Shown here piece after piece: positions 21,525 through 25,090 of a DNA stretch of 54,189 bases (within the stretch, counting starts at the first letter, position 1; the number at the start of each line of letters is the position of its first letter). The notes under the pieces were generated by a model. The model was not told where the DNA came from. It worked only from the letters and a program-made list of their open reading frames with translations, and did not search any database. The stretch is from Escherichia coli (lineage in GTDB: Bacteria > Pseudomonadota > Gammaproteobacteria > Enterobacterales > Enterobacteriaceae). A program made the position numbers and the translations under genes. Location of the stretch: assembly GCF_003334335.1 (NCBI RefSeq), contig NZ_QOWQ01000032.1; one strand, written 5' to 3'.

Positions 21525-22061
21525 TTAACTGCGCGGGTAATGGATGAGGGAATGAAAATGTACGGTTTGCTCCCCACCATTACGATAGATATGCGTGACG
21601 TCTGCAGCAAATCGAACGCCTTCCCCACAATTAAGGGTCTGCCATTCCCCATCAACGCACAGATCAAGTTGTCCATCAATGACGACGACATGTTCGATTA
21701 CCCCCTTCTCATGGGGCGTCGATTCGCTTATTGCACCAGATGCCATCTGAATCGAGAAGTGTTCAAAGCAGAGTTGTGGATCATAAGGAAACAGCGAAGT
21801 GATCACCATCGCCTGCTGTTGTGGATCATAAACTGAAGGCGTAGCGGACTGCGGCGGAGAAATAAATGTTGAAAATGGTACGTTCAACCCGGTGGCAATT
21901 TTCCATAATGTCGCGACCGTCGGACTGGACTCATTACGCTCAATCTGCCCTAACATTGCTTTAGAAACGCCCGTCGCTTCTGCCAGTCGCGAAAGACTCC
22001 AGCCGCGCTGCTGGCGTAGTTGTTTAAGTGTGGTGGATAAAAAGCGAGCGAGATTTTCCAT
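21525..22061 (-). CDS. ydcN: XRE-family HTH regulator with C-terminal cupin domain
   Basis: 178-aa ORF with N-terminal HTH (LSRLAEATGVSKAMLGQIERNESSPT) and C-terminal cupin-like region. Confidence 0.85.
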   Translation of the reverse strand: MENLARFLSTTLKQLRQQRGWSLSRLAEATGVSKAMLGQIERNESSPTVATLWKIATGLNVPFSTFISPPQSATPSVYDPQQQAMVITSLFPYDPQLCFEHFSIQMASGAISESTPHEKGVIEHVVVIDGQLDLCVDGEWQTLNCGEGVRFAADVTHIYRNGGEQTVHFHSLIHYPRS

Positions 22062-22152
22062 GCGACTCCTCCGGCAAAACGGAAGTTTATCACTTGTGCG
22101 TTATAACGGACAAATGCTACGGTGCCTGTACGCTATAACGCACGAGGTGACT

Positions 22153-23328
22153 ATGCGTCTGTTTTCTATTCCTCCACCCACGCTACTGGCGGGGTTTCTG
22201 GCGGTATTAATTGGCTACGCCAGTTCAGCGGCAATAATCTGGCAAGCAGCGATTGTCGCCGGAGCCACCACTGCACAAATCTCTGGCTGGATGACGGCGC
22301 TGGGGCTGGCAATGGGCGTCAGTACGCTGACTCTGACATTATGGTATCGCGTACCTGTTCTCACCGCATGGTCAACGCCTGGCGCGGCTTTGTTGGTCAC
22401 CGGATTGCAGGGACTAACACTTAACGAAGCCATCGGCGTTTTTATTGTCACCAACGCGCTAATAGTCCTCTGCGGCATAACGGGACTCTTTGCTCGTCTG
22501 ATGCGCATTATTCCGCACTCGCTTGCGGCGGCAATGCTTGCCGGGATTTTATTACGCTTTGGTTTACAGGCGTTTGCCAGTCTGGACGGTCAATTTACGT
22601 TGTGTGGAAGTATGTTGCTGGTATGGCTGGCAACCAAGGCCGTTGCGCCGCGCTATGCGGTAATTGCCGCGATGATTATTGGGATCGTGATCGTCATCGC
22701 GCAAGGTGACGTTGTCACAACTGATGTTGTCTTTAAACCCGTTCTCCCCACTTATATTACCCCTGATTTTTCGTTTGCTCACAGCCTGAGCGTTGCACTC
22801 CCCCTTTTTCTGGTGACGATGGCATCGCAAAACGCACCGGGTATCGCAGCAATGAAAGCAGCTGGATATTCGGCTCCTGTTTCGCCATTAATTGTATTTA
22901 CTGGATTGCTGGCACTGGTTTTTTCCCCTTTCGGCGTTTATTCCGTCGGTATTGCGGCAATCACCGCGGCTATTTGCCAAAGCCCGGAAGCGCATCCGGA
23001 TAAAGATCAACGTTGGCTGGCCGCTGCCGTTGCAGGCATTTTCTATTTGCTCGCAGGTCTGTTTGGTAGTGCCATTACCGGGATGATGGCTGCCCTGCCC
23101 GTAAGTTGGATCCAGATGCTGGCAGGTCTGGCGCTGTTAAGTACCATCGGCGGCAGTTTGTATCAGGCGCTGCATAATGAGCGTGAGCGAGACGCGGCGG
23201 TGGTGGCATTTCTGGTAACGGCAAGTGGATTGACGCTGGTCGGGATTGGTTCTGCGTTTTGGGGATTAATTGCCGGAGGCGTTTGTTACGTGGTGTTGAA
23301 TTTAATCGCTGACAGAAACCGATATTGA
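22153..23328 (+). CDS. ydcO: BenE-family (benzoate-type) membrane transporter
   Basis: Track ORF 21892-23328 is over-extended from a GTG. ATG at 22153 gives MRLFSIPPP... of 391 aa, multi-TM. Stop codon abuts the IS609 end. Confidence 0.85.
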   Translation: MRLFSIPPPTLLAGFLAVLIGYASSAAIIWQAAIVAGATTAQISGWMTALGLAMGVSTLTLTLWYRVPVLTAWSTPGAALLVTGLQGLTLNEAIGVFIVTNALIVLCGITGLFARLMRIIPHSLAAAMLAGILLRFGLQAFASLDGQFTLCGSMLLVWLATKAVAPRYAVIAAMIIGIVIVIAQGDVVTTDVVFKPVLPTYITPDFSFAHSLSVALPLFLVTMASQNAPGIAAMKAAGYSAPVSPLIVFTGLLALVFSPFGVYSVGIAAITAAICQSPEAHPDKDQRWLAAAVAGIFYLLAGLFGSAITGMMAALPVSWIQMLAGLALLSTIGGSLYQALHNERERDAAVVAFLVTASGLTLVGIGSAFWGLIAGGVCYVVLNLIADRNRY

Positions 23329-23334
23329 CATCCT

Positions 23335-23354
23335 CCACGCCCTGAAGGACGTGG
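23335..23354. repeat. IS609 subterminal hairpin (tnpB-proximal, RE-like)
   Basis: ccacg-ccctgaagga-cgtgg, lying 14 nt beyond the tnpB stop codon. Confidence 0.5.
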
Positions 23355-23367
23355 ATCCCTGCTACGT

Positions 23368-24576
23368 TCAGGCTGTCGCCTGAATCATTTCGGTGGGTTC
23401 CTGCTTCAACGGGCGGCCTGACTGCACCATCTCTCCACAGGCAAGAACGGCGTGCCCCGCCGCTAAAATGTTGCGAGCGCCATTTACATCGGCGTTCGCT
23501 GTATATCCACATACCTGGCATCTGAATTTACTTTGTGACAGGCGGTTCTCTTTCGCTGTATGACCACAGTACGCGCAACGCTGGCTTGTATACGCTGGCG
23601 GAACAGCAAGCACCTGACCGCCACGCCAGAGCTGCTTGTACGCAAGCTGGCGGCGCATTTCATACCAGCCCTGATCCAGTATCGAACGGTTTAAACCTGA
23701 TTTTGCCCGGACATTGCGCCCCGGCTGGCTGACCGTACCCGCTGCTGACTTTGACATGTTGCTGACCTTCAAATCCTCAATGACTATCATTGCGTGGTTT
23801 TTGCTGACGGCCGTTGTGACTTTGTGAAGGTAGTCCCTGCGGATATTTGCGATACAGGAATGCAGTCGCTGTATTTTGCGTTTCTGCTTTTGCCAGTTGT
23901 TGCTGAATTTGACCTTGCGGCTTAACTGTCGCTGAAGTCTCGCCAGCTTCTTCTGGTTTTTCTGAAAACTGTTTACAGGCTCAAAGACTGTGCCATCTGA
24001 CAGCGTGGCGAGTTTAGCCACGCCAGCATCCAGCCCGACCATTGATGCTGAAGGGTGAACCGGAGTTGATACTTCACTTTCTGTCTGAATACTGATGTAC
24101 CACTTACCGCAGGACTGGCTGACAGTGACATTTTTCACAACACCCGTGACCTGACGGCTGTTCCGGTAGCGCATCCAGCCCAGTTTCGGCAGAAAAATAC
24201 GGCTGTTTTCCTGATCGAGCTTAACGCCCTGCGGGTAGCGGAATGCATCATTCTGTCCCCGCTTTTTGAATCGGGGAAAAGCAGCCCGCTTCCGGAAGAA
24301 GTTTTTGTAAGCCCGCTCAAGGTCTTTCAGTGACTGTTGCAATGGCTGTGAGGGAGAATCTTTAAGCCATTGCGTTTCAGTGGCATTTTTCCACTCAACC
24401 AGCCAGGAAGCCATTTTCCCGTAAGGGATGTATTTATTACCGGCCTCATGATTCTCATTCTGACGTGCCAGAGCACGATTGAAAACGAAACGACATGCGC
24501 CTGCGAAGCGCCTCATTTCACACTCCTGTTGACCACCGGGTCTTAACTGGAATTTAAATGCCTGTAATCGTTTCAC
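23368..24576 (-). CDS. insQ: TnpB (IS605 OrfB family, RuvC-like RNA-guided nuclease)
   Basis: 402-aa ORF with RuvC-I GLDAGV, Ruv[11 protein letters not shown], zinc finger CAYCGH...CQVCGY and RuvC-III DVNGARN all present. Annotated start may be the internal Met at codon 21 (382 aa). Confidence 0.85.
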
Positions 24577-24583
24577 AGGTCAA

Positions 24584-25090
24584 ATGATACTTTGGTCTGT
24601 GAAAAAAGAAACCGATATCCGGCGTGGAAGGCATTGTGTTTTCCTGATGCATGTTCACCTGCTCTTTGTCACCAGATACCGACGCCAGATTTTTGACCAT
24701 GACGCGACAGAAAAACTACGCACTTACTTTTCAAATGTATGTGCTGATTTTGAAGCTGAACTGGTTGAAATGGATGGCGAACCAGATCACGTCCATTTGT
24801 TAATTAACTATCCTCCCAAACTGGCGATATCCAGTCTGGTAAACAGCCTCAAAGGCGTATCGGGTAGGTGACTGCGACGAGATCGACCAGATATTGCATT
24901 CAGGTATTACTACAAAGGCGTTTTGTGGAGTCCTGGCTATTTTGCCAGTAGCTGCGGAGGTGCGCCAATATCCGTCATCCGCCAATACATTGAACAACAG
25001 CAAACACCTGGTCAGGTGGAAAACCGCGCCTTATATCCCCGCCCTGAAGGATGGGGTTTTACGGCGCACCGGATAAAAAGCGCCATCTAA
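24584..25090 (+). pseudogene. insP: IS200/IS605 TnpA (Y1 HuH transposase), frameshifted
   Basis: Frame 1 (24584-24871) encodes the HuH region (PDHVHLLINYPPK) and stops after ...KGVSGR. The C-terminal part with the catalytic Tyr (GVLWSPGYFASSCGGAPISVIRQYIEQQ) continues in the +1 frame to 25088-25090. Needs a 1-nt correction near 24869-24872. Confidence 0.7.
25037..25056. repeat. IS609 subterminal hairpin (tnpA-proximal, LE-like)
   Basis: ccccg-ccctgaagga-tgggg, with the same loop and orientation as the hairpin at 23335-23354, 1702 bp away. Confidence 0.5.

Follow-up and report, generated by a model that had tools for sequence, protein, structure and literature searches.

The regulator gene sutR (ydcN) and the divergently transcribed transporter gene ydcO of Escherichia coli probably work together as a module for sensing and transport, built on a local repressor of the XRE-cupin type, with a two-box palindromic operator in the spacer between them. 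The pair is real, ordinary, and in outline already known; what this analysis adds to the published picture of SutR is the conservation of the two-box operator and of the gene pairing across Proteobacteria. Both genes were analyzed within a 54,189-nt stretch of E. coli contig NZ_QOWQ01000032.1, here termed the window (Table 1).

Table 1. Features of the sutR-ydcO region, in coordinates of the window
Feature	Position	Strand	Evidence
sutR (ydcN), 178 aa, XRE-type HTH and cupin sensor domain	21525..22061	-	ORF, Pfam, RefSeq WP_000429155.1 / b1434
Divergent sutR/ydcO spacer, 91 bp, with both operators and both predicted promoters	22062..22152	.	Sequence, genomic SELEX, ChIP-exo
Shine-Dalgarno of sutR, GGAGGAG on the minus strand	22066..22072	-	Sequence reading
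Predicted extended -10 for sutR, minus-strand TGaTAAACT	22084..22092	-	Inference
Predicted -35 for ydcO, TTGTGC; shares bases with the left arm of box 1	22094..22099	+	Inference
SutR box 1, GTGCGTTATAACGGAC, 1 mismatch to GTGCGYTATARCGCAC	22096..22111	.	Inverted/direct repeat, pattern search, conservation
Predicted extended -10 for ydcO, TGcTACGGT, 18 bp downstream of its -35	22115..22123	+	Inference
SutR box 2, GTACGCTATAACGCAC, 1 mismatch to GTGCGYTATARCGCAC; ends directly 5' of the ydcO Shine-Dalgarno	22128..22143	.	
Shine-Dalgarno of ydcO, GAGG	22144..22147	+	Sequence reading
ydcO, 391 aa, BenE-family membrane transporter	22153..23328	+	ORF, PF03594, TIGR00843, RefSeq b1433
ydcO codons 7-9, Pro-Pro-Pro	22171..22179	+	Sequence

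The DNA of the stretch is 100% identical to that of E. coli K-12 MG1655, for which the RefSeq annotation names sutR, ydcO, insQ, and rlhA, and at least 80% of the stretch is present in 5408 of 5426 complete E. coli genomes. This identity, together with the position of sutR between rlhA and ydcO, places the encoded protein (WP_000429155.1 / NP_415951.1) in the SutR orthologous group (E. coli b1434). The original prediction of an HTH-cupin gene ydcN and a BenE-family gene ydcO, divergent and 91 bp apart, agrees with the coordinates and the Pfam domains; the regulator gene has already been studied, as SutR (Yamamoto 2015), and its binding to the spacer is on record. The ydcO reading frame opens with the ATG at 22153, closes with the stop at 23328, and encodes 391 aa; a 478-aa ORF beginning at 21892 was regarded as a mechanical extension. 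In vitro translation has revealed severe peptidyl-tRNA drop-off at the PPP of the YdcO N-terminal peptide, in a study of relief by EF-P (PMC8934632). A direct repeat of 25 nt (21997/22172) and several long-range inverted repeats (I3-I5) fall inside coding regions and were treated as chance.

SutR carries an XRE/Cro-C1-type HTH at its N-terminus (PF01381 HTH_3, residues 12-64, E 1.5e-16) and a cupin beta-barrel sensor at its C-terminus (PF07883 Cupin_2, residues 105-171, E 3.9e-10), and its relatives in the PDB include the cupin-domain structure 6b8w (E 1e-37) and the full-length structure 1y9q (E 8e-37). Among 38 SutR orthologues, 18 positions of the cupin domain (residues 105-177) are at least 90% conserved, as are 18 of the 19 positions of the HTH segment TGVSKAMLGQIER.ESSPT, a near-invariance that fits the invariance of the operator described below. 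Conserved columns of this alignment include S114, H117, E123, H124, W140, R150, F151, D154, H157, Y159, and N161. SutR scores 41 bits against the NCBIfam PuuR model, far under the cut-off of 211, and thus represents an orthologous group apart from PuuR. YdcO is a full-length BenE protein, covering positions 3-378 of the 378 in PF03594 (E 8e-162) and scoring 703.8 bits against TIGR00843 (cut-off 203.4).

The 16-bp palindrome GTGCGYTATARCGCAC occurs twice in the spacer, with starts 32 bp apart. A pattern search for the box returned 3 sites in the window versus 0.23 expected; the third (15408-15423, 3 mismatches, at the ydcT/ydcS junction) is without a ChIP-exo peak and was treated as chance. Because a first homologue search yielded little beyond near-identical proteins of E. 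coli and Citrobacter, conservation was assessed with YdcO relatives taken as 50%-identity representatives. In 36 of the 80 closest YdcO loci, a divergent gene directly upstream encodes a SutR homologue (43-76% identity), and the palindrome is present in the spacer of every one of these paired genome loci (36/36), in two copies in 35 of them, across Enterobacterales, Halomonadaceae, Legionella, and alpha- and beta-proteobacteria. The spacing between boxes ranges from 27 to 45 bp across loci, which makes cooperative binding in a fixed helical phase unlikely. YdcO loci among these 80 that have no regulator also have no palindrome, with three exceptions: a truncated contig (L014), a locus with a decayed sutR (L029), and a locus with two box-like sites and no detectable SutR gene (L034). 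Outside of the Enterobacteriaceae, conservation of the locus is confined to these two genes, and all other neighbours change.

When metagenomes were scanned with nothing but the two-box pattern, 80 loci were retrieved; in 67 of them the two genes diverge on either side of the boxes, and a further 5 are interrupted by contig ends. The analysis gathered roughly 150 boxes in all. In five metagenome loci the two-box operator faces DUF2000, AlaX-like, or YbaK-like genes, with a SutR-like gene in four of the five; the AlaX-like and YbaK-like genes resemble aminoacyl-tRNA editing proteins, while for DUF2000 no solved structure was matched by sequence and a literature search returned nothing. The arrangement is also found in Vibrio cholerae, where VC1968 (PDB 1Y9Q) has a divergent BenE gene across a 93-bp spacer with two boxes. 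Counted from the printed alignment, VC1968 is ~45% identical to SutR over 170 residues and its recognition helix is nearly identical; 1Y9Q is a SutR-clade orthologue. Neither the two-box conservation nor ydcO as the main target is described in the SutR sources consulted, the 2015 primary paper aside, and the definition of the SutR box may already stand in Yamamoto 2015.

That SutR binds this spacer has been published, from genomic SELEX and from ChIP-exo (PMC8464067), and its autoregulation is likewise on record. YdcN was renamed SutR, for 'sulfur utilisation regulator', in 2015 (Yamamoto, Nakano and Ishihama, Microbiology 161:99). Genomic SELEX identified 17 binding sites and 13-15 target operons, and the SELEX targets listed include 'ydcO/ydcN', yagR, xseB, ynfG, pfkB, fliZ, tdcF, and yjcS. 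A palindromic motif has already been reported for YdcN, and the RegulonDB regulon, as quoted in the source consulted, consists of cysE, fliAZ-tcyJ, and sutR, with ydcO absent. In vivo, ChIP-exo yielded 62 SutR peaks, of which the peak in the ydcN spacer has a signal-to-noise ratio (S/N) of 1344.75 and is flagged as RNAP-bound, the runner-up at dppA has an S/N of 140.6, and all remaining peaks are at or below 31 (Gao et al. 2021, PMC8464067). By that peak list the spacer is the top in vivo site of SutR by a factor of ~10. The original prediction had proposed an EMSA of YdcN on the intergenic region, a question in effect answered by the published SELEX and ChIP-exo; because both already put SutR on the spacer, the assay would be largely redundant.

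When transferred to the window, the ChIP-exo peak falls at about 22120-22152, centred on box 2. This mapping relies on an offset between NC_000913.2 and NC_000913.3 that we take to be 1976 bp and that was checked only indirectly. As a check on the offset, the centre of a YcjW peak lies at most 2 bp from an AAACGATT core. Weaker SutR peaks, at dppA and caiF, both have a degenerate box at their centre, which provides a further, indirect check.

These binding data also bear on an alternative in which SutR is chiefly a multi-target regulator of sulfur utilisation, with a scope of sulfate generation and reduction, cysteine synthesis, Fe-S enzymes, and tRNA thiolation, and in which ydcO is an incidental or at most a minor target. 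The name given to SutR reflects such a role, and the many SELEX targets and operons, the RegulonDB entries cysE and fliAZ-tcyJ, and the number of ChIP-exo peaks are consistent with it. However, occupancy is dominated by the spacer, the fliA peak has an S/N of only 2.9, and cysE is not among the 62 peaks (PMC8464067). Further, conservation of the operator and of the BenE-family partner extends far past E. coli, no sulfur gene is a conserved neighbour, and no strong extra box was detected outside the spacer in the 80 genome loci of ~9 kb each. We consider this alternative improbable. A role in sulfur utilisation and a module with ydcO are nonetheless compatible, and an effector that is a sulfur-containing amino acid would reconcile the two.

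How binding in the spacer would control the module depends on where the promoters lie. A generic sigma-70 scan detected no promoter in the spacer, and the promoter model is based instead on conserved TGnTAnnnT elements. Of 38 orthologous spacers, 31 have such an element in the interval separating the two boxes, beginning, by eye, 2-3 nt past box 1, and a 'TT' precedes box 1 in most of the aligned spacers, as judged by eye and not counted. The transcription start of ydcO is predicted near 22130, within box 2, and that of sutR at about 22077. For sutR, the -35 of the predicted promoter would sit in the right arm of box 1; at the predicted sutR -10 position TGnTAnnnT is present in only 10 of the 38 spacers, mostly enteric, so this promoter is placed more tentatively.

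In the module favoured here, SutR dimers would occupy the two palindromes (consensus GTGCGYTATARCGCAC) of the 91-bp spacer. Box 1 would span the -35 and the spacer of the predicted extended -10 promoter of ydcO and, in enteric bacteria, also the predicted mirror-image promoter of sutR, while box 2 would cover the predicted start of ydcO transcription; with the boxes so placed, bound SutR would be expected to shut off both sutR and ydcO. Binding of a small molecule in the cupin pocket would then release SutR, and YdcO, a BenE-family secondary carrier, would be made and would move the ligand or a close relative across the inner membrane, in a direction that is likewise conjectural. Repression of ydcO is suggested by the position of the operator relative to the predicted promoters and by precedent in the family. 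EcoCyc grades SutR a 'dual regulator', and given this label it is possible that SutR acts as an activator. A search of the literature found no experiment on a SutR-dependent change in ydcO expression. The original prediction of a self-contained module for sensing and transport is well backed by the ChIP-exo and SELEX binding and by the conserved pair and operator; the regulation of ydcO by SutR is something we infer.

With respect to what is sensed, our leading guess, on leads that are weak, is an amino acid resembling D-methionine rather than benzoate. The cupin pocket of 1Y9Q, the V. cholerae orthologue from the same BenE-paired, two-box clade, contains D-methionine (PMC7901475). Additionally, the two-box operator faces DUF2000, AlaX-like, or YbaK-like genes in the five metagenome loci, the second-strongest in vivo site of SutR is upstream of the dipeptide-uptake gene dppA, and the published SutR phenotype concerns sulfur utilisation. 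Because of these four observations, we tentatively raise the possibility, without attaching much confidence to it, that the SutR clade senses D-methionine-like or other non-cognate amino acids, that YdcO carries them, and that the module belongs to a widespread response to unusual or D-amino acids.

The alternative that follows from the transporter family is an aromatic-acid module, where SutR senses benzoate or a similar aromatic carboxylate and YdcO is a benzoate:H+ symporter like the BenE proteins of bacteria that degrade aromatics. YdcO does fit the BenE models over their full length, and RefSeq and other sources call its homologues 'benzoate/H(+) symporter BenE family'. Support for the alternative is limited to this family name, which was also the sole basis on which the original prediction described the transporter as aromatic-acid-type, a description that the genomic context does not bear out. 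Neither in V. cholerae nor among the 80 closest YdcO-like loci did neighbour clustering, combined with inspection of ~20 named neighbours, identify a recurrent aromatic-catabolism cluster, that is, the kind of genomic link to benzoate or catechol catabolism known from the founding BenE proteins. The named neighbours are housekeeping or unrelated genes (rlhA, gshA, kup, gshB, mutS, mutL, lolA, rarA, and men genes). YdcO-like genes that lack SutR have neighbours without a common theme, except for a lineage-specific gshA-kup-BenE-gshB arrangement; a guess at the substrate from these neighbours was rejected as too weak. Further, no ligand other than D-methionine has been seen in the pocket of an orthologue, and where a like regulator and operator face other genes, these are of the aminoacyl-tRNA-editing type and not aromatic-acid genes. 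E. coli K-12 is not known to possess a pathway for degrading benzoate, which also argues against an aromatic-acid role. We regard an aromatic-acid module as very unlikely. Literature searches, including for 'BenE family', found no functional or transport study of YdcO.

The interest of the pair lies in that ydcO is among the E. coli genes still without a known function, while the pair, together with its precise two-box operator, has been kept from Vibrio through Legionella to the beta-proteobacteria. The combination of this conservation with a ligand-bound crystal structure from the SutR clade replaces the vague label 'putative benzoate transporter' with a hypothesis that can be put to a sharp test. 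For biosensor work, SutR and its operator also offer a ready-made pair of repressor and operator that is probably orthogonal. In other respects, sutR-ydcO is unremarkable, a local module of regulator and transporter of a kind that is well described.

The closest characterised systems are the XRE-cupin repressors of Pseudomonas aeruginosa and E. coli PuuR, with which SutR has the two-domain architecture in common. The P. aeruginosa set consists of ErfA, PsdR, PauR, PA0535, PA1359, PA1884, and PA4987, of which those characterised are all repressors that bind the intergenic region adjoining their own gene; six of the seven regulate the adjacent gene, and most of the regulons are very small and local (Trouillon et al. 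2021, PMC7901475). Their targets are often transporters, as with the repression of the RhtA-like exporter gene PA1360 by PA1359, some are autoregulated, and ligand release mediated by the cupin domain is expected, as with E. coli PuuR, which leaves DNA upon sensing putrescine; models of the Pseudomonas proteins were built on 1Y9Q (PMC7901475). SutR likewise binds palindromic DNA in the spacer adjoining its own gene, as evidenced by the published SELEX and ChIP-exo and by the two palindromes, but its partner gene, of the BenE family, and the sequence of its operator differ from those of the P. aeruginosa repressors and PuuR. By sequence, YdcO is a full-length member of the family that includes the BenE benzoate:H+ symporters of aromatic-degrading bacteria (TC 2.A.46; PF03594), yet the YdcO clade is not embedded in a ben operon and instead probably has an XRE-cupin regulator in control. 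And while the published account of SutR stresses a sulfur-utilisation regulon, the analysis presented here emphasizes the pairing with ydcO and the conserved operator.

The sutR-ydcO locus is real, but it is an annotated and partly characterised E. coli locus. The 178-aa product of sutR (ydcN) matches HTH_3 (E 1.5e-16) and Cupin_2 (E 3.9e-10) in Pfam, while the 391-aa YdcO gives a full-length BenE match (E 8e-162) and scores 703.8 bits against NCBIfam TIGR00843 (cut-off 203.4). The window DNA matches E. coli K-12 MG1655 at 100% identity, RefSeq gives the order rlhA - sutR - ydcO - insQ, and at least 80% of the stretch is present in 5408 of 5426 complete E. coli genomes. Because the open reading frames, domain matches and RefSeq annotation agree, the original prediction of a divergent HTH-cupin regulator and BenE-family transporter with a 91-bp gap was right in every sequence detail. 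IS609 lies directly 3' of ydcO (window ~23325-25072), and its annotated end, in coordinates converted from NC_000913.3, runs over the final 4 bases of ydcO and with them the stop codon. Codons 7-9 of ydcO (22171-22179) encode Pro-Pro-Pro, at which the YdcO N-terminal peptide suffered severe peptidyl-tRNA drop-off during in vitro translation in a study of EF-P relief (PMC8934632); YdcO synthesis may therefore be EF-P-dependent.

Features of the sutR-ydcO region (window coordinates) and of metagenome loci with alternative box-facing genes (locus coordinates)
Feature	Position	Strand	Remarks
sutR (ydcN) ORF	21525-22061	minus	178 aa
sutR-ydcO spacer	22062-22152		91 bp
ydcO	ATG 22153 to stop 23328	plus	391 aa
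SutR box 1, GTGCGTTATAACGGAC	22096-22111		spacer palindrome
SutR box 2, GTACGCTATAACGCAC	22128-22143		spacer palindrome, 32 bp downstream of box 1
Third box-like site, GTACGTCATAAAGCAC	15408-15423		3 mismatches; ydcT/ydcS junction; probably chance
Predicted PydcO -35	22094-22099
Predicted PydcO extended -10 TG	22115-22116
Predicted PydcO -10, TACGGT	22118-22123
Predicted ydcO transcription start	near 22130		inside box 2
Mirror-image extended -10, TGaTAAACT	22092 to 22084	minus	E. coli and some enteric relatives
insQ (IS609)	23368-24576	minus	intact, TnpB-type
tnpA/yncK pseudogene (IS609)	~24584-25015		decayed tnpA
Box-facing alternatives	L115 438-872; L120 2437-2859; L132 209-1133; L150 6425-7096; L158 612-1781		metagenome loci

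An incremental addition of this analysis is a defined two-box operator in the spacer. When the whole 54-kb window was searched with GTGCGTTATAACGCAC (up to 3 mismatches), the two palindromes and one weak third site were recovered, against 0.23 matches expected from shuffled sequence. The third site coincides with none of the 62 listed YdcN ChIP-exo peaks and is therefore probably a chance match. In 2015 Yamamoto, Nakano and Ishihama gave ydcN the name SutR, for 'regulator of sulfur utilisation', and the RegulonDB regulon, as quoted in the literature, comprises cysE, fliAZ-tcyJ and sutR. In vivo ChIP-exo gave 62 YdcN peaks and a palindromic motif; the peak assigned to ydcN, flagged RNAP-bound, has a signal-to-noise ratio of 1344.75, followed by dppA at 140.6 and all others at 31 or less (Gao et al. 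2021, PMC8464067). Genomic SELEX also placed SutR and YdcO among the targets of PlaR (YiaJ) (PMC6958661), and SELEX with minor-sigma-factor holoenzymes gave a peak under flagellar sigma at genome position 1504230, within ydcN (PMC5493296). Binding of SutR to the spacer, the test proposed with the original prediction, had therefore already been passed in published work. In the literature other than Yamamoto 2015, no evidence was found for SutR control of ydcO expression, a SutR effector or a YdcO substrate.

The spacer occupies 1506081-1506171 in NC_000913.3, and the ChIP-exo coordinates refer to NC_000913.2; the offset between the two here is taken to be 1976 bp. With this assumed offset, the ydcN peak (1504105-1504137) maps to window 22120-22152, its centre on box 2. 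The mapping and the motif are supported indirectly by three further peaks: that of dppA, centred within 1 bp on GAACGCTAAAACGCAC (3 mismatches to the box; NC_000913.3 3708116-3708131, L087 217-232, upstream of dppA and outside the window); that of caiF, centred on a box-like site with 5 mismatches; and that of YcjW, centred no more than 2 bp from an AAACGATT core. The dppA site suggests that SutR may have dipeptide uptake as a genuine secondary target.

The second addition is that the operator and its BenE-family partner are conserved together at depth. Thirty-three diverse BenE-family proteins were aligned and the alignment was used to query 100,044 species genomes; in 36 of the 80 closest loci a SutR homologue (43-76% identity) lies directly upstream of, and divergent from, the transporter gene (Enterobacterales, Halomonadaceae, Legionella, Sneathiella, Massilia, a Rhodocyclales genome, Tolumonas, Amphritea and Marinobacterium). 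All 36 spacers contain GTGCGYTATARCGCAC (up to 3 mismatches), 35 of them twice with a start-to-start distance of 27-45 bp, and none of these loci has a strong match (up to 2 mismatches) outside the spacer. Among the 80 loci, those lacking the regulator also lack the upstream motif, except for a truncated contig (L014), a locus whose sutR has decayed (L029) and one with two box-like sites and no detected SutR gene (L034). Paired transporters fill most of a rough neighbour-joining tree, in which regulator losses are scattered and a Burkholderiales/actinobacterial branch has no regulator at all. Outside Enterobacteriaceae, no further conserved gene was found around the pair in these loci or V. 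cholerae. Six Burkholderiales loci without a SutR partner (L043, L052, L054, L055, L061 and L069) share the order gshA - kup - BenE-family - gshB, placing glutathione synthesis genes beside YdcO-like genes, which may be merely lineage-specific synteny; in L035, the gene directly upstream is homocysteine S-methyltransferase-like.

As an independent test, metagenome contigs were scanned with the two-box DNA pattern alone, for which chance matches are negligible because it carries ~49 bits of information by our estimate. The pattern occurred in at least 120 stretches and at least 80 loci; among the 80 listed, SutR-like and BenE-family genes diverge around the boxes in 67, five are cut by a contig end (including L132, which also faces a DUF2000 gene), four have the transporter but no adjacent regulator, three have a SutR-like gene but DUF2000- or AlaX-like genes opposite the boxes, and one has neither gene. 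The four loci lacking an adjacent SutR-like gene (L113, L117, L146 and L160) carry a YeiB-like (DUF418) gene on the other side of the boxes, and their regulator may be encoded elsewhere in the genome. In five of the loci listed, what the boxes face is not a BenE transporter but DUF2000, an AlaX-like gene or both; a SutR-like gene is present in four of the five. DUF2000 (PF09391, E 7e-41) occurs in four of the five, and downstream genes are AlaX-like or YbaK-like in three: AlaX-like in L150 and, after DUF2000, in L158, and YbaK-like after DUF2000 in L132. The AlaX-like and YbaK-like genes resemble aminoacyl-tRNA editing proteins, and their NCBIfam matches are sub-threshold (AlaX-like 126-133 bits vs cut-off 300; YbaK-like 58 vs 153). 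The box-facing genes of these five loci, DUF2000 included, have the look of a second class of SutR-clade targets.

A third addition is the assignment of a solved structure to the module. The closest full-length PDB relative of SutR is 1Y9Q, V. cholerae VC1968 (E 8e-37; ~45% identity counted from the printed alignment), with a nearly identical recognition helix. The native protein (P0271) was recovered with its genomic context: its gene and a divergent BenE-family gene (386 aa) are separated by a 93-bp spacer containing GTGCGTAATAGCGCAC and GTGCGTTATAGCGCAC, 33 bp apart, and 1Y9Q is therefore a true member. Across 38 orthologues, the HTH segment TGVSKAMLGQIER.ESSPT is nearly invariant (18 of 19 positions at least 90% conserved), as are 18 cupin positions at the same level, a pattern that fits one shared operator and, judged from these sequences, probably one shared effector class. 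In V. cholerae (L083 1-3715), the BenE-family gene converges on a four-gene run (alpha/beta hydrolase, enoyl-CoA hydratase family, MenC-like and AMP-binding Pfam domains) that resembles, with names read from domains, menH, menB, menC and menE, menaquinone genes handling o-succinylbenzoate; the adjacency was seen in no other taxon compared.

The 38 spacers, aligned on their boxes, suggest how the operator might act. By eye, 'TT' precedes box 1 in most, forming a -35-like TTGTGC, and 31 of 38 have the extended -10 pattern TGnTAnnnT between their boxes, starting by eye 2-3 nt past box 1. A generic promoter scan of the spacer found no promoter, so these elements remain predictions. At their predicted positions, box 1 would cover the -35 and spacer and box 2 the +1 region, an apparent repressor layout; the end of box 2 directly precedes the ydcO Shine-Dalgarno sequence. 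In E. coli, as in some of its enteric relatives, box 1 could also occlude a sutR promoter with a mirror-image extended -10, a weaker prediction because only 10 of 38 spacers have the pattern.

The original prediction described YdcO as an aromatic-acid-type transporter with an undefined substrate, with benzoate among the compounds to test. The BenE family name is the only basis for this label, which is unsupported: no recurrent aromatic-catabolism cluster appears among neighbouring genes in V. cholerae or in the 80 closest YdcO-like loci, as judged from neighbour clustering and about 20 named neighbours. Four leads, all weak, point away from benzoate: D-methionine in the cupin pocket of 1Y9Q (PMC7901475), which could be an expression or crystallisation artefact; the DUF2000/AlaX-like targets; the dppA site; and the published SutR phenotype, which concerns sulfur compounds. 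In stationary phase, V. cholerae is a producer of extracellular D-methionine at millimolar levels. On the strength of these leads and this release, an amino acid, possibly D-methionine-like, is judged a likelier SutR effector than benzoate, though still a long shot.

YdcO belongs to the BenE family by sequence, whereas a genomic link to benzoate catabolism is absent from the YdcO loci examined. E. coli PuuR leaves its site on sensing putrescine. It is not orthologous to SutR, which scores 41 bits against the NCBIfam PuuR cut-off of 211. The P. aeruginosa XRE-cupin regulators are all inhibitors with binding sites adjacent to their own gene; most have one or two local targets, often transporters, and they are thought to sense metabolites via the cupin domain (Trouillon et al. 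2021, PMC7901475). In architecture and binding, the closest kind for SutR is this XRE-cupin local repressor, and by analogy SutR would repress its targets and release them upon binding a ligand.
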